Shown here: in pieces, positions 2,336-46,046 of the stretch
How positions within the stretch are numbered: the first letter of the stretch is position 1
Layout of the letters: every line of letters starts with the position of its first letter
From: a virus
IMG/VR virus record: IMGVR_UViG_3300045988_072133
Coordinates: 39,171-103,170 of that record
Length of the DNA: 64,000 bases
Direction: 5' to 3' (one strand)
The notes under the pieces: model-generated
Database searches by the model: none
The model's input: only the letters and a program-made list of their open reading frames with translations
Told to the model about the DNA's origin: nothing
Made by a program: the position numbers and the translations under genes

Positions 2336-3850
2336 TTACTCAGTAAGAATATTCGGAATCATACTCATGGTACGAGTAGGATCCAGGATTAATACACCCA
2401 GAGTAGCCATCTTGTGGATCTGTGCAGAATCCTCAGGATACGACATATACGGGTTGTTCATACCACCAGTAAAAGGATTGCGCAGGCCCCACATGTAACC
2501 ACGATACTCTTCCTTACCACGAACCTTAGCTAGCTGAATATTAGGCTCCTCAGTAGTACCAATGCACATAATGTCATAACGGTACGACTCTGCAACACCG
2601 CCATTCGGGTGCATGATCTTGTTACGTACCTGATCGTCGTAGAGAGGATTAACATCAATCTTAATAGTTACACCATTAGGAGCTTTGTACTCTACGAACT
2701 GGAAACCTGCACTCAGAGCATTCTCATGAAGCTTGCTCGAAGTCTTTGAAATAATAGCAGGATTAGCTGCATTACCACCAAGATACTGGAATACAGTCCA
2801 TCCAGATACTACATCAAGAACTGCCTTATGGAACTGTACAGCACCACGAGAACCAGTCTCAATAACAAAGGTACGATCCGAGTAATCAAGCTTCGACTCT
2901 GACAGCTCGAAGAGAGCATCCTCAAGAGTCTTCAGACTAAACTTAGTGTAATAACGAGTATTACCTACAGACATCTGAGCACGGATACCATCGCCCATCT
3001 TAATGACATTACCGGACTTACCAAAGTTCAGATACTCACCGTTCTTATTACGGTTCGAGCGGCCAAACATTATAATGTTCGACTTATATTCTGAGAAGGT
3101 TTCCTCCAGCTTATAGTCTACATGGTGAATCCATGAATTTGCTACTTGCTTGTTACCAGCCTTATCTACAAAAGGTATACCAATAGCCAGCTTCTTATCA
3201 AGAATATTTCCAGGAACCTTAGTCTGGATACGAATGTGTGACCATTCATTACGCATAGCAGTAGAGCTAGTATAACGAACATCACCTACTTCCAGCGACA
3301 TCGTATCCTCAACAGGAGCATATTCCCAGCTGAACCGTTTACCAGCAACAAGCTGACTTACGGGCATGCCATCAAGAACGCCTCCCATAAGTTCTACGGT
3401 ATAAACTGCATTCGAACCTTCAAGTCTCGGCTGACCCAGAATACGCAGGGGATAAACCTCATTAAGTTCACCTACGATTACCTCGCCATCAGCAAACCAG
3501 TCTTCGGGGAAAACAACCTTGAAGGGCTGTCCGTTGGCACCAGCAAAAGTCTCGGTATCCCCAGTATTCTCAAGAACTTGATCACTCATATCACGAGCCT
3601 CTACAAGGGGAATATTACGACGAGAACTGCCAATGACTTCCCAAGTGTACTCATCATCAGTTTCAAAGTACTTAACAGGGAATCTCTGGAGATAACTATC
3701 GAGGCTCTTACCACGATGCTGAGCCAGAAGCTGTACCATAATATTAGTAGCTTTCTGAGGCGCACGACCAAAAATAGCTCCGATGTGGTTATCTCGGGTT
3801 AAGCCTTTCCACGAAGTGAAGGCTTTCATTTGAAATTTACCTAGTTGCAT
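2336..3850 (-). CDS. putative major capsid protein (504 aa)
   Basis: The size fits large HK97-fold capsid proteins of crAss-like phages. It lies directly downstream of an acidic scaffold-like gene and is preceded by an AT-rich promoter-like gap. Function is inferred from position and size only. Confidence 0.45.
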   Translation of the reverse strand: MQLGKFQMKAFTSWKGLTRDNHIGAIFGRAPQKATNIMVQLLAQHRGKSLDSYLQRFPVKYFETDDEYTWEVIGSSRRNIPLVEARDMSDQVLENTGDTETFAGANGQPFKVVFPEDWFADGEVIVGELNEVYPLRILGQPRLEGSNAVYTVELMGGVLDGMPVSQLVAGKRFSWEYAPVEDTMSLEVGDVRYTSSTAMRNEWSHIRIQTKVPGNILDKKLAIGIPFVDKAGNKQVANSWIHHVDYKLEETFSEYKSNIIMFGRSNRNKNGEYLNFGKSGNVIKMGDGIRAQMSVGNTRYYTKFSLKTLEDALFELSESKLDYSDRTFVIETGSRGAVQFHKAVLDVVSGWTVFQYLGGNAANPAIISKTSSKLHENALSAGFQFVEYKAPNGVTIKIDVNPLYDDQVRNKIMHPNGGVAESYRYDIMCIGTTEEPNIQLAKVRGKEEYRGYMWGLRNPFTGGMNNPYMSYPEDSAQIHKMATLGVLILDPTRTMSMIPNILTE

Positions 3851-30905: not shown

Positions 30906-31018
30906 GATTCCTGATAGTTACTCACCCTTAACTTTGAGTAATATAGGAGAATCATGTTATCACATTGTACCTATTTGTGGTAGCATGGACAGGGGAGTTC
31001 GAATCTCCCTACAGGAAC
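30906..31018 (+). ncRNA. tRNA-like element with canonical T-arm (possible degenerate or unusual tRNA)
   Basis: GGGAG-TTCGAAT-CTCCC T-arm followed by ACAGGAA, which can pair with TTCCTGA about 110 nt upstream. No canonical anticodon arm could be folded by eye. Confidence 0.2.
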
Positions 31019-31025
31019 TAATTTA

Positions 31026-31099
31026 GGGCCTTTAGCTCAGTTGGTAAGAGCAGCGAGCTCATAACTCGAAGGTCATCGGTTCAAGCCCGGTAAGGCCCA
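31026..31099 (+). tRNA. tRNA-Met/fMet (anticodon CAT)
   Basis: Acceptor GGGCCTT/AAGGCCC, D-arm GCTC-AGTTGGTAA-GAGC, anticodon loop CTCATAA, T-arm ATCGG-TTCAAGC-CCGGT. Confidence 0.85.
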
Positions 31100-31848
31100 C
31101 TAAATTTTAATTCTAAGATGTTATTATTTCTATTCCTAATGTATTGTATACAGCTATGTGCGTTGATTAATTTAGCCGAGTATAACATACCTGACTGGAT
31201 TAAATTTTGTGCATTTATTCCTGTAATAGGGTTAATAGCAGAAATTATAGCTGTACTATTCTACAGAACTTAATCTCTATTAAGAGATGAAATATTTCAT
31301 TCATCACGGACTTGTATCAAGGATGCAAGAATGTCGGCAGTTAGCCCACTGTCGTATCGAAAAGGGCATCAACCGTAACCATAATGGAACGATTGTGAGC
31401 CATGCGACCTCCTGTTAAGGCTAAATTAGTCTATTCCACAGTCGCAAAAAAGGCTTTGATACTAACCACACTCAGCAAGTATCAGCGAGGTAAGCGCCCT
31501 CGGATCAAAGCTGGTGAATACATCAGAGTCTTTGGCAAATTGGTAAACATCTCAGAGATGCCTGCCTTTTTGAGAAATTAGCAAATTATTACTGTCTAGA
31601 TCCAAATTATTTAAACTTGCTTTGAATGTAGCAGTCCCTGGATAATGGCTCATAAGACATACAATCTGGAGTCAATGTAGAACACAACTCATTAGTCTAT
31701 CAGCTCGGTATACTTCGTGAGATACCAGTGCCAGCGTCACCCCTTTAATGCGGCAGATAGTTCTAATGGGAAGCAGTTAACTAAGTCAGATGCAGTAATT
31801 TTTAATAATTTATCACACAATCGCTAACATTTAATTACACAAATCATT

Positions 31849-38784: not shown

Positions 38785-39021
38785 ATGTACTCAATTTATT
38801 ACAAAGGAAAGGAATATGAAGTCTCAGAGAAGCTATTCCTTAATATATGTTTATGTATGCTTCAATTTGAGCAAGCGTCTATCATTGATAAGCCTGACCT
38901 TATCGAAGCTTTCCAAGAAAGATGTGTTCCTGAGATTCTTAAATCTCCTGATTTTGATTACTCAAGATTAGAAGATGAGAGTCTTGAAGGTGTAATTGAT
39001 ACAACCCCAATTTGCGAATGA
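38785..39021 (+). CDS. hypothetical protein (78 aa)
   Basis: ORF; last gene before the 1-kb ORF-free region. Confidence 0.35.
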   Translation: MYSIYYKGKEYEVSEKLFLNICLCMLQFEQASIIDKPDLIEAFQERCVPEILKSPDFDYSRLEDESLEGVIDTTPICE

Positions 39022-40016
39022 AAATCAAGTTCAATAACAACAAGAAATACTGGTATAAACCAGGGAAAATTTAATAGGCATAGAGTATGGTGCTCTACGC
39101 CCTATTATTCAACTCCAGAGTAAACAGGGAGTATAAATAAAGGTTGCCTCGGTAGATAGAGATTATCTATAATAGCTTTCAGGCTTAAGTAAAAGACCAA
39201 GTGAATCTTAGTGAGTAATGATTATTACAAAGCAGCTCAGCCAAAGCATTAAATGAGTAACGATGCTACCAGGTGAGTTAGGTGAAATTCCTACAACAGA
39301 TGATGCTACGAATTGTAATGATATAACCTGGATCATTAAGTACTTGCCCAAATCGAGAGTCATATTTTTCATCTCCTCAATGACTTGGTAAGAGAGGAGA
39401 TTTTTATTACTAAAGTAGTGAGCTTGGAGGTAGCTATCTTTAATGAGTAGATGAGTAGCAGTATGTGGTGAGGTATAAGTTTCACAGTTTACTCCTCAAA
39501 TAAAAACTGTAGGTATACTTAAATAATGGTGAAAGACTAGACTCGAAGTCAGGAATCTGAAATATAAGAGTAAGTAGCTAGTGAAGTCAAGTTAAGAACC
39601 TGAAAAGCCGCAGCTGGATTCCCTACAATGAAGGTAAGTTAATGACTTACGGTACTATAACTAGCAATACTTATAGTACTTCTTTAGGTGTAACAACACG
39701 CTTTAGTAATATCTAGACTATAGGAGTTTGATCGCTCCTATAGTCACCGTTTGCTTCAGAGGCTTAAGTCATACTAAGTAAATCTTGCCTGAATCTAATA
39801 AGCTGGAGTTCGAACCTATTCAATGACTTAGTAAAGAGAATAGGATTTTTATATAGTATATGAAAGAAATCAAAGAATATCAAGTGTTAGGAATAGGATT
39901 TTTAGCGATAGCTATTCTTGCAGGGTTAATCCTAATTCTTATGTAGTTTTTATTTTAGGGCCTATAGTTAAAAGCTTTAAAAAGCTATTTCGTATTATTG
40001 TCAAATTAGATGTATA
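39022..40016. other. about 1-kb ORF-free, stop-codon-dense region with iteron-like GAGTA[AG] repeats and hairpins. Candidate origin or ncRNA locus
   Basis: No ORF of 60 aa or more in any frame. Repeated (A/G)TGAGTA(A/G) units at about 39213, 39253, 39273, 39444, 39452 and 39568. Terminator hairpin at 39371-39406. Perfect 9-bp inverted repeat CTATAGGAG-tttgatcg-CTCCTATAG at about 39719-39744. Confidence 0.4.
39371..39406 (+). terminator. rho-independent terminator inside the ORF-free region
   Basis: ATCTCCTC-(15 nt)-GAGGAGAT followed by TTTTTATT. Confidence 0.5.
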
Positions 40017-40358: not shown

Positions 40359-40867
40359 CATCATTTGCAAATCATTTAATCATTGCTACCTATATAGGTA
40401 AAAATGAACATACTTTTAAGGTAGGAAGTAGTTATCTATTGAGGGTAGAATTCAGAGGCACAGGAATGTATCCTATAAATGTCGTCTTAGACTATGCTCA
40501 ACATTATACTTCTGTACCTTACAGGACTATTATAGACTTTTTAAAAGAATGGACTGAGATAGTTACTGTCATAGATCCTAAACTCGTTGAAAAGAGCTCT
40601 AAAGTACTTTATATCGACGATTCTGGGGACTCAGAGCTTCCTTTTGACCAGGAGGATGATGAAATCCTTAAAGACTATCGGAATCCTAAATCTAGCCTGC
40701 CTTCATTAGTTATGGATAAACCTTCCACAGATCTTGTGAGAATTCATGGGAAAATAGTCCTATCTAATGGTGCATGGGTATGTGACAAATGCCGGCAGGT
40801 GAACTTCGATCCCTCAGCTGAAAGGTGCAAATGCTGTGGTGGTAAAAGAATCTTATTCGATGAGTAG
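40355..40867 (+). CDS. protein with C-terminal RanBP2-like zinc ribbon (170 aa)
   Basis: C-terminal WVCDKCRQVNFDPSAERCKCCGGKR matches W-x-C-x2-C-x3-N-x6-C-x2-C. Confidence 0.4.
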   Translation: MTSFANHLIIATYIGKNEHTFKVGSSYLLRVEFRGTGMYPINVVLDYAQHYTSVPYRTIIDFLKEWTEIVTVIDPKLVEKSSKVLYIDDSGDSELPFDQEDDEILKDYRNPKSSLPSLVMDKPSTDLVRIHGKIVLSNGAWVCDKCRQVNFDPSAERCKCCGGKRILFDE

Positions 40868-41972: not shown

Positions 41973-41978
41973 TCAGGA

Positions 41979-42049
41979 TGCGGTGTAGTGTAACGGTAAC
42001 ACACATCACTTTGGATGATGTATTTCAGGTTCAAATCCTGACATCGCAA
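41979..42049 (+). tRNA. tRNA-Gln (anticodon TTG)
   Basis: Acceptor TGCGGTG/CATCGCA, D-arm GTGT-AACGGTA-ACAC, anticodon arm CATCA-CTTTGGA-TGATG, T-arm TCAGG-TTCAAAT-CCTGA. Confidence 0.8.
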
Positions 42050-42076
42050 CAATTATTAACTAATAATAATATTATT

Positions 42077-42421
42077 ATGAAGTACAAGAAATGGACTGAA
42101 AAACGCTGTATTGAGATTATTAAAGTAATGAATCAATTTCCTGATAATCTTACTGCAGGATTTGAAGAATGTGCTAAAAAGTTTGGAGGAACTCCTCTCT
42201 ATTATAACACATCGTGGTACAAAAGTGGGCATGCCCTCTGTAAATTACGCAAGAAAATGAATAGCCTCGTTTGTACAACTCTGTCGACTACGAGCCCGAA
42301 CTACAAGAATTCTCCCAGAGTTAATGGAAAATTTCGCTCCGAGAGAGCTGAACGAATAGTGCCCACTACAGCAGAATTCTTCAAAGGATGGATATCTAGC
42401 TGTACTAAAGTCTTTCAGTAA
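42077..42421 (+). CDS. hypothetical protein (114 aa)
   Basis: The listed ORF 41978-42421 starts inside tRNA-Gln. The start is taken at the Met at 42077 (MKYKKWTEKRC...). Confidence 0.35.
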   Translation: MKYKKWTEKRCIEIIKVMNQFPDNLTAGFEECAKKFGGTPLYYNTSWYKSGHALCKLRKKMNSLVCTTLSTTSPNYKNSPRVNGKFRSERAERIVPTTAEFFKGWISSCTKVFQ

Positions 42422-45497: not shown

Positions 45498-46046
45498 ATG
45501 GACATAACTATTAAGGAGAAAGCGTACGAATCACAAAACCTATCCTTTAACCAAACTTGTTACTTATTATCTCTAAGGAATAGAATTACTAAGAGTGAGT
45601 TTCAGGAACTCCTGGATAAGCGTTATATCTTCATTAAGGATCACATGATTCAACTAAATGGTAAGGGATATAATGCTATTACGGAAGCAATGAGACTTTC
45701 TCGTATTGTTACAACCAATGAAGATGATGTCAAGGCTTTAGCTAAACAAATGGCTGAGAAATTTCCTGCGGGAAAGAAAATTGGCACCAACAAATATTGG
45801 AGAAGTAATTCTGCTCTTGTAGTAAAGAAGCTAACTAGCTTTTTGAAGAGATATGGTGAGTTTCCATCGGAAACTATCCTTGAGGCTACTGATGCCTATG
45901 TCAAAAGTTTTGGAATTGATACTTCCCTGATGCGAATTCTACCATATTTCATTGAGAAAGATGGCGAATCTGATCTGTTAACTACTATCGAGAATCTCGA
46001 AAATCGTGGTGATGATGGAACAGCATTTGCTGAAACTATTCTTTAA
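45498..46046 (+). CDS. hypothetical protein (182 aa)
   Basis: Immediately upstream of the helicase with ATGA coupling. Confidence 0.4.
   Translation: MDITIKEKAYESQNLSFNQTCYLLSLRNRITKSEFQELLDKRYIFIKDHMIQLNGKGYNAITEAMRLSRIVTTNEDDVKALAKQMAEKFPAGKKIGTNKYWRSNSALVVKKLTSFLKRYGEFPSETILEATDAYVKSFGIDTSLMRILPYFIEKDGESDLLTTIENLENRGDDGTAFAETIL

Follow-up and report, generated by a model that had tools for sequence, protein, structure and literature searches.

A kilobase without long reading frames

The window analysed here is a stretch of 64,000 nucleotides (nt) of viral DNA (positions 39,171 to 103,170 of IMG/VR record IMGVR_UViG_3300045988_072133), and its longest gap between open reading frames (ORFs) of at least 60 amino acids (aa) is the 995 nt from 39022 to 40016, where the original prediction had correctly noted that no such frame exists. 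The region is also dense in stop codons, as had been claimed, with 174 stops per kb over six frames compared to a window mean of 138 (standard deviation 17), which ranks second among 253 sliding windows; the plus strand alone has 96 stops versus 66 +/- 10. Coding sequence is not wholly absent, as the region contains two conserved micro-ORFs (18 and 28 aa). The blocks laid out on the plus strand are, in order, micro-ORF1, a spacer (V0), module A, a variable domain (V2), hairpin H, module B, micro-ORF2 and a truncated tRNA-Met gene (Table 1). The order of the conserved blocks is the same in all of the approximately 60 related loci that were gathered for comparison from IMG/VR and human-gut metagenomes (labelled L001 and onward, L001 being phage cr111_1), and the fillers between the blocks are swapped from one locus to another. 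The interpretation favoured here, with a probability of about 0.5, is that the 39-40 kb region is a plus-strand island of non-coding RNA with a modular build, and not an origin of replication acting at the level of DNA.

Matches to the region in a phage collection came from four records only, which represent two genomes under two accessions each: cr108_1 (Pipoluvirus) and cr111_1 (Lahndsivirus), both uncultured human-faecal crAss-like phages of the Asinivirinae within the Steigviridae. The matches of the 39-40 kb region to these genomes are patchy, and the replication block of the window (44-64 kb) has 79% nucleotide identity to cr108_1. Thus, judged by this identity, the window derives from an Asinivirinae-like crAss-like phage that is related to cr108_1 but is a distinct phage of the same subfamily. 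All genes from approximately 31 kb onward, including the neighbours of the region, are on the plus strand, and seven tRNA genes predicted by ARAGORN are dispersed through the window.

Table 1. Positions of the features of the 39-40 kb region in the window.
Feature	Position	Strand	Remarks
Micro-ORF1	39018-39074	+	18 aa, basic, MKIKFNNNKKYWYKPGKI; ATG overlaps the stop codon of the upstream gene (ATGA)
Spacer V0	39075-39174	+	variable filler from micro-ORF1 to module A; small hairpins, e.g. 39076-39102
Module A	39175-39405	+	conserved 5' and 3' parts, P3 insert, terminator
A, P1	39175-39180/39355-39360	+	RNA (G)GCUUUC with GAGAG(UC)
A, P2	39182-39184/39346-39348	+	GGC/GCC
A, P2a	39187-39191/39341-39345	+	AAGTA/TACTT; UU bulge between P2 and P2a
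A, kissing strand and loop partner	39196-39202/39383-39389	+	ACCAAGT/ACTTGGT
A, variable domain P3	39206-39340	+	
A, terminator hairpin P4	39371-39378/39394-39401	+	ATCTCCTC/GAGGAGAT; RNA AUCUCCUC/GAGGAGAU; T run to 39405
Variable domain V2	39405-39714	+	between A terminator and hairpin H; "module C" in the window, ~308 nt
Hairpin H	39716-39745	+	perfect 11-bp stem GACTATAGGAG/CTCCTATAGTC, loop TTTGATCG
Module B	39751-39850	+	compact paralogue of A, no P3 domain
B, P1	39753-39759/39803-39809	+	GCTTCAG/CTGGAGT; RNA GCUUCAG with CUGGAGU
B, P2	39760-39763/39787-39790	+	AGGC/GCCT
B, P2a	39766-39768/39784-39786	+	AAG/CTT; UU bulge between P2 and P2a
B, kissing strand and loop partner	39772-39779/39826-39833	+	TACTAAGT/ACTTAGTA; RNA UACUAAGU/ACUUAGUA
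B, terminator hairpin	39815-39821/39838-39844	+	CCTATTC/GAATAGG; T5 at 39846-39850
Micro-ORF2	39860-39946	+	28 aa, hydrophobic, MKEIKEYQVLGIGFLAIAILAGLILILM; starts 9 nt past the T run of B
tRNA-Met(CAT) remnant	39958-39981	+	acceptor 5' strand and D arm only

Two paralogous modules with a common predicted fold

Modules A and B are, by their sequence and pairing pattern, paralogues with a common fold in which P1, P2, a UU bulge and P2a are followed by a terminator hairpin. Both begin ...CUU(U)CAG(AG)GCUUAAGU...CYAAGU.AA and both end ...UCAAUGACUURGUAA(A)GAG within the hairpin, followed by U5. The strand just inside P2a, which is the apical loop of B and a junction strand of A, can form 7-8 base pairs with the terminator loop approximately 30-40 nt downstream, and this contact is predicted, from complementarity and covariation, to be a kissing loop or pseudoknot. 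Such complementarity arose by chance in 32 (A) and 19 (B) of 20000 loop shuffles. One contact pair is C-G in A and U-A in B, and module A of cr108_1 has a two-sided G-C to A-U change at another pair of the contact (box CCAAAT, loop ATTTGG). The terminator stems of A and B are almost wholly different in sequence and both pair. Elsewhere, one locus (L052) has a two-sided G-C to A-U change in P2, and an A.C opposition in P1 becomes G-C in another (L005). Because MAFFT alone placed P1 of A and P1 of B out of register, pairs were counted in an alignment made by hand, with gaps filled by N, in which 92.7% of the cells of 32 A and B sequences pair, versus 26-48% with slid partners, and eight pairs have two-sided changes. 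RNAalifold, applied to natural B sequences independently of the hand-made structure, returned the same helices; the fold of B has a z-score of -2.7, and B scores 84 bits against R1, the covariance model derived from both modules. These pairing patterns point to structure at the level of RNA. The original prediction had offered, as its alternative, a structured non-coding RNA of about 350 nt ending at the terminator, which is borne out in substance by the chain of plus-strand structures with compensatory changes but not in its form as a single 350-nt transcript.

The RNA is assigned to the plus strand because invariant U-G and G-U pairs in P1 would read A-C on the opposite strand, and because of the T runs and the orientation of the genes. 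Folding energy alone gives no verdict on strand, since the minus strand of B has a z-score (-2.4) similar to that of the plus strand. The terminator that had been recognized in module A is present, and it has a counterpart in B: at 39371-39405 and 39815-39850 there are stems of 7-8 base pairs with 4-5 G-C pairs followed by T5, and the T run is conserved in relatives. The loops of 15 nt (A) and 16 nt (B) are outside the usual range of terminator loops (3-8 nt), which is why a consensus terminator scan missed both hairpins. The 8-mer AATGACTT has five plus-strand copies in the window, of which three are in this region; those at 39379 and 39822 are the two terminator loops, and that at 39641 is in a hairpin of the 308-nt V2. 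In module B, the variants GTTTG/GATAG and GTTCGAAC/GTACGAGC seem linked and were considered as covariation, but this was rejected, as they form no pairs and the linkage is broken in L011.

The conserved 5' and 3' parts of module A have 97-100% identity in more than 25 unique sequences, and module B is close to invariant in approximately 40 contigs. Between the two parts of A, from ...AAGUGAA to UACUUGC..., the P3 slot holds eight unrelated sequence types, of which the seven that were folded are 28-135 nt in length, each with its own closing helix abutting the conserved flanks; the eighth, present in the sequence of L060, is outside the folded set. The same locus (IMGVR_UViG_3300029243_000008, ~3020-3066) carries a natural variant of module A, with the terminator loop cut to CTCCTC-AAT-GAGGAG and the kissing partner deleted.

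Interchangeable domains and hairpin H

The V2 slot between the A terminator and hairpin H is filled among the loci by alternatives of 28, 68-70, 95, 154, ~308 and 437 nt, and each of those folded (28, 68-70 and 95 nt) forms a hairpin of its own or is closed by a long helix. Three adjacent compensatory pairs (L019 versus L039) and a U-G wobble (L065) were seen in the 68-70-nt type. In the window, V2 is enclosed by a perfect inverted repeat of 11 nt (TATTACTAAAG/CTTTAGTAATA, 39405-39415/39701-39711) and contains ATGAGTAG twice in tandem and a hairpin GTAAGT-TAATG-ACTTAC; it differs from the version in L059 at 16 positions, including, by the author's reading, a compensated T-A to C-G change in hairpin GUACUAUAA/UUAUAGUAC. 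A miniature inverted-repeat element at 39405-39711 was considered on account of the 11-nt terminal repeat and rejected; the element was found only in the A-H slot in all loci, and the fact that the other V2 fillers are also closed by helices counts against it.

Hairpin H is the perfect inverted repeat that had been pointed out at this place as 9 bp long; it is perfect, but has 11 bp, at 39716-39726/39735-39745. Compensatory changes in H include G-C to A-T in three loci (L034, L039, L041) and T-A to C-G in L042. L018 and L060 have G-T wobbles, other loci have A-C mismatches, and because the mismatches are as frequent as the wobbles, H alone gives no verdict on strand. In four loci (L019, L052, L064, L065), H occurs in the absence of module B, ~70-100 nt past the A terminator and ~25 nt before the start codon of a protein gene. 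This suggests that H is an element in its own right, which may be, for example, a 5' stabiliser, a processing site or an operator. The 5' arm of H resembles the core of a T7 promoter (ACTATAGG-AG), but the resemblance was judged to be coincidental, as the motif is single-copy and no T7-like polymerase is known in these phages.

Distribution and conservation of the modules

The modules are carried by approximately 60 phage and human-gut contigs, and their distribution appears to be narrow and restricted to phages. R1 detects exactly two copies in the window, A and B. R1 and nhmmer, applied to approximately 0.8 Mb of syntenic loci of more distant crAss-like phages (anchored on the phosphoesterase gene), returned close relatives only, with no copy in the more distant phages; a metagenome scan returned human-gut contigs only, with B modules near-identical; and no module was returned from 185,579 bacterial and archaeal genomes in two pattern scans. 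Conservation of the modules, as estimated from these alignments, exceeds that of neighbouring genes: module B is ~95% identical to its counterpart in cr108_1, and the modules are 92-100% identical to those of cr108_1 and cr111_1, compared to 79% for the replication genes and no megablast match in either genome for the protein genes that flank the region in the window. The two genomes are unannotated here and keep the same RNA modules, with no intact gene in their place of the kind that would make the region of the window a decayed remnant.

The modules match no catalogued RNA family in the comparisons made. With the models of Rfam 15 at gathering thresholds there was no match in the region, including those for tRNA, transfer-messenger RNA (tmRNA), GOLLD, ROOL, HEARO, riboswitches, self-cleaving ribozymes, group I and II introns and CRISPR repeats. 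Permissive filters gave three sub-threshold matches at chance level, all on the minus strand; a match to PhotoRC-II (E 0.57) was rejected as confined to the hairpin on the minus strand. Full-text literature searches returned no description of structured RNAs in crAss-like phages.

Micro-ORFs, spacer and tRNA genes

Both micro-ORFs look translated, because frame and length are kept, the substitutions are conservative, and variable sites are depleted at the second codon position of micro-ORF2 and at the first and second positions of micro-ORF1. Changes in micro-ORF1 are mainly lysine/arginine or synonymous, with variable sites distributed 4/6/11 by codon position, and it is located 13-742 nt upstream of module A in most loci with enough upstream sequence. 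The frame and length of micro-ORF2 are kept in ten nucleotide variants, with substitutions among I/V/L/F/A/T and variable sites distributed 10/2/10 by codon position. The equivalents in cr108_1 and cr111_1 bear no annotation, and neither micro-ORF2 nor the flanking proteins could be assigned to a PHROG family. The spacer V0 is absent or swapped in cr111_1 and cr108_1, and its length among relatives is 13-742 nt. In the window, a terminator scan found a hairpin in V0 on the minus strand, and a sigma-70-like sequence (39144-39173, TTGCCT-18-TATAAT) stops 2 nt short of module A; it occurs in the window type of spacer only and is not conserved in relatives. The consensus of Bacteroidales promoters differs from the sigma-70-like type.

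No tRNA or tmRNA was predicted by ARAGORN in the 39-40 kb region. The tRNA-Met remnant aligns with the first ~25 nt of an intact tRNA-Met at the same position in L013 and L014, and a tRNA-Met(CAT) gene is located just downstream of the island in seven loci (L008, L013, L014, L015, L032, L039, L042). In three of the contigs, which are 109-172 kb in length (L008, L015, L032), the island is beside or within arrays of 10-12 tRNA genes, and one of these (L015) also has an odd tRNA with a two-base anticodon at 383-456 according to ARAGORN. Downstream in the window, an ORF of 147 aa (41978-42421) starts one base before tRNA-Gln (41979-42050) and covers it fully, which implies that the true start of this ORF, if it is a gene, is further downstream. 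In cr111_1 (L001, 5179-7874), genes for nicotinate phosphoribosyltransferase and ribose-phosphate pyrophosphokinase, which belong to salvage of nicotinamide adenine dinucleotide (NAD) and to phosphoribosyl pyrophosphate metabolism, are found at most ~600 nt past the island; they were not found at the matching position in the window.

Predicted control of transcription in cis

The function proposed for modules A and B, at the same even odds as the RNA island itself, is that of conditional terminators (attenuators) that would act in cis. The modules would be read within a rightward early or middle transcript, and in each the hairpin would capture the oversized loop of the terminator that follows it; this loop-loop contact, either by itself or under the influence of a factor, would determine what share of polymerases pass on. 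Read-through would reach micro-ORF2, the tRNA gene or genes and the genes beyond, and termination at the modules would also free structured RNAs with defined 3' ends. Module A tolerates an interchangeable structured insertion (P3), and V2 and H separate A from B.

Action in cis within a rightward transcript is argued from four observations. Conservation begins abruptly at P1 for module A and at H for module B, and the sequence upstream is unrelated among relatives. A Bacteroides-type -7 box (consensus TAnnTTTG) was not found on the plus strand between 38700 and 40100. Micro-ORF2 starts 9 nt past the T run of B, so that its expression requires read-through. Sites complementary to the two terminator loops are not in excess over chance in the window. 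In addition, the structured domain P1-P2-P2a is directly upstream of P4, in the leader of genes on the same strand, which is the arrangement expected of an attenuator. AGACTATARG, considered as a general promoter motif, was set aside with 25 matches versus 17.6 expected, dispersed on both strands.

Several points weigh against this reading. Internal promoters may be present at the locus, as no promoters of crAss-like phage RNA polymerases are known. No convincingly strong antiterminator pairing was found as an alternative; by eye there are only weak pairings of GAGA (P1 3') with UCUC (5' strand of P4) and, in the minimum free energy structure, of CAAGUG with UACUUG. Unlike those usually associated with riboswitches and attenuators, the genes downstream do not belong to one pathway but encode small proteins without known function, tRNA-Met and, in cr111_1, NAD salvage, all within a single lineage. 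The T runs are short (5). The alignment in which pairs were counted was made by hand and leans toward the proposed structure, which was derived from the same sequences; one control of the pair counting can be beaten by related sequences without any structure; and the family is narrow and close to invariant, with only approximately 6-8 independent covariation events. Hairpin H could equally be a DNA palindrome as an RNA hairpin. Finally, the natural variant L060 is without the terminator loop and hence without the contact, so that this copy either can do without the contact or is in decay.

Alternative explanations

It is possible, although not probable, that A and B are instead genes for stable small RNAs (sRNAs) acting in trans, of ~230 nt for A and ~100-135 nt for B with H as a protective 5' stem-loop, which would take their 3' ends from their own terminators and have host or phage targets or bind a protein, as may be the case for the stable RNAs of the T4 tRNA cluster. 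The modules are terminator-ended, strongly conserved and structured; they are sited among tRNA genes, with the island of relatives beside or within the 10-12-gene arrays; and the near-invariance of B would fit an RNA that touches a partner along most of its length. However, there is no conserved promoter-like sequence ahead of A or H, where the upstream sequence is unrelated among relatives, although 5' ends could come from processing; the lack of surplus loop-complementary sites in the window also counts against targets in trans, and the best partner of each loop is inside its own module.

An improbable alternative to attenuation in cis is that the stretch from A to B (~560-830 nt, perhaps with the spacer) is one large multi-domain RNA resembling GOLLD and ROOL, in which the near-palindromic loops mediate intramolecular or intermolecular assembly. 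All segments between 39175 and 39850, including the interchangeable domains, have helices that bear compensatory or wobble changes; the location near phage tRNA genes is like that of GOLLD and ROOL; and the loop motifs ACUUAGU and ACUUGGU are almost self-complementary. Yet the hairpin and T run at the end of module A should stop a bacterial polymerase. Some relatives have A and H but neither module B nor the domain in between, A and B showed no long-range pairing with each other, and the Rfam models of GOLLD and ROOL gave no match. Given as little credence is the speculation that the island is an as yet unrecognised phage RNA or RNA-peptide device, in which either the near-palindromic loops of A and B would assemble, in one molecule or among several, a ROOL/GOLLD-like particle tied to the tRNA cluster, or the basic 18-aa peptide would bind the kissing complex and switch both terminators as a minimal N/nut-like antitermination system.

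The modules are still less likely to be plain intrinsic terminators and boundary sequences that end transcription only and are kept alike by recombination among co-circulating phages. The mosaic junctions at the edges of the conserved blocks are sharp, and identity far above that of the surrounding genome can also be obtained by recent exchange, but plain terminators need neither a conserved 15-16-nt loop with a co-varying upstream strand nor a helix-closed insertion site that takes unrelated inserts.

An iteron-type replication origin, which was the first choice of the original prediction, now appears very unlikely. In its favour are the inverted repeat, the location of a non-coding stretch upstream of replication genes and a real local surplus of GAGTA-type words (eight GAGTA versus 1.8 expected, and four RTGAGTAR versus 0.11 expected at the rate of the window); over the whole window RTGAGTAR is at chance (13 versus 12.1 expected). 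Of the six or more motif copies that had been counted, only four are exact RTGAGTAR (39211, 39253, 39443, 39451), the other two quoted being looser. An origin of this type should have an evenly spaced array of direct repeats, but a repeat search and Tandem Repeats Finder found no regularly spaced set of at least three direct repeats of ~17-22 bp; there are only scattered words of 2-3 copies ~300 nt apart and the sole tandem repeat of the region, the 8-nt unit present twice in V2. The GAGTA copies fall in P3 of module A and in module C, and close relatives have unrelated sequence in place of both sub-domains. The GC content across the region (0.31-0.37) is like that of the flanks, without an AT-rich dip, and there is no inflection of GC skew, the cumulative minimum being at ~30-32 kb, at the strand switch. 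The replication block does not follow directly, as had been thought: a phosphoesterase gene is at 40836, and the first recognisable replication gene, that of a DnaB-like helicase, starts at 46046, 6 kb away. The G-U pairs in the pairing pattern also make sense only in one RNA strand. The second-longest ORF-free gap of the window (893 nt, 30956-31848), which is at the minus-to-plus gene switch and the cumulative GC-skew minimum and holds a tRNA-Met gene (31026-31100), is a better candidate for an origin or a divergent promoter.

A decayed or recoded protein gene, as might be suggested by a stop-dense gap within a gene-dense genome and by the stop-codon reassignment known in crAss-like phages (PMC7886860), can practically be dismissed, as no single stop-codon reassignment gives a plus-strand frame of more than 59 codons, relatives have no gene at the same place, conservation is block-wise with compensatory changes of the RNA type, and ARAGORN found no suppressor tRNA in the window.

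Comparison with known RNA systems

Modules A and B are like intrinsic terminators, attenuators and riboswitch platforms in that they end in G+C-containing hairpins followed by T runs on the coding strand and are untranslated, ahead of genes that run in the same direction; they are also in tandem, as are some riboswitches. They differ from intrinsic terminators in that their loops are conserved, of 15-16 nt rather than the usual 3-8, and paired with an upstream strand of the same module, and they differ from riboswitches and attenuators in having no identified ligand, no leader-peptide coupling, no clear antiterminator and no match to a riboswitch or leader in Rfam. Termination control through RNA-RNA pairing in an untranslated phage leader is exemplified by the immunity system of satellite phage P4 (the CI RNA with seqA, seqB and seqC) and by the c4 RNA of phages P1 and P7. 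The island shares with these systems short complementary sequences on the same strand, a non-coding phage leader, early or replication genes downstream and associated terminators; unlike them, it has its complementary pair within one compact module that includes the terminator loop, and there is no homology in sequence or structure. The crAss-like phages are not known to be temperate.

The tRNA cluster of phage T4 gives rise to stable RNAs (species 1 and 2, rnaC/rnaD) that are processed from tRNA precursors and whose function is unknown. Like the modules, these are structured phage RNAs of roughly 100-200 nt amid phage tRNA genes, but no similarity was detected, and the modules of the island bear terminator hairpins of their own. 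The guanidine-II riboswitch, the fst/RNA II pair of the par locus of plasmid pAD1 and the dimerization initiation site (DIS) of HIV-1 function through Watson-Crick kissing loops, and the par contact involves terminator loops. The modules share the Watson-Crick pairing between two hairpin loops and differ in that the contact has 7-8 base pairs, the loops are much larger, the partners are in the same transcript and there is no antisense partner gene. Micro-ORF2, with 28 aa, is hydrophobic, like the toxins of type I toxin-antitoxin systems, but no antitoxin RNA arrangement was seen, neither a convergent or antisense RNA gene nor a minus-strand terminator being evident. The assemblies of GOLLD and ROOL are among the subjects of PMC12286853. 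These RNAs resemble the island in being phage-associated, often beside tRNA genes, and multi-domain, with variable parts and loop-loop contacts; the island is unlike them in having no match to their Rfam models at E values up to 10, a core of only ~100 nt that is duplicated, a terminator between the parts, and a distribution in one crAss-like lineage.

Implications for crAss-like phages

Few viruses of the human gut are as abundant as the crAss-like phages, yet next to nothing is known of how their genes are regulated or of their RNA biology. The locus offers a testable RNA element, with a duplicated core of ~100 nt that is conserved above the replication genes, a predicted contact with the terminator loop, insertion sites that take unrelated structured domains, and a natural variant without the loop. 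It also advises caution in annotation, as "empty" kilobases of crAss-like phages can be packed with micro-ORFs, RNA modules and remnants of tRNA genes. Should the contact tune termination, the modules would represent an attenuator of new design; should the RNAs instead be stable products, they would be an addition to the unexplained structured RNAs that phages keep by their tRNA genes.

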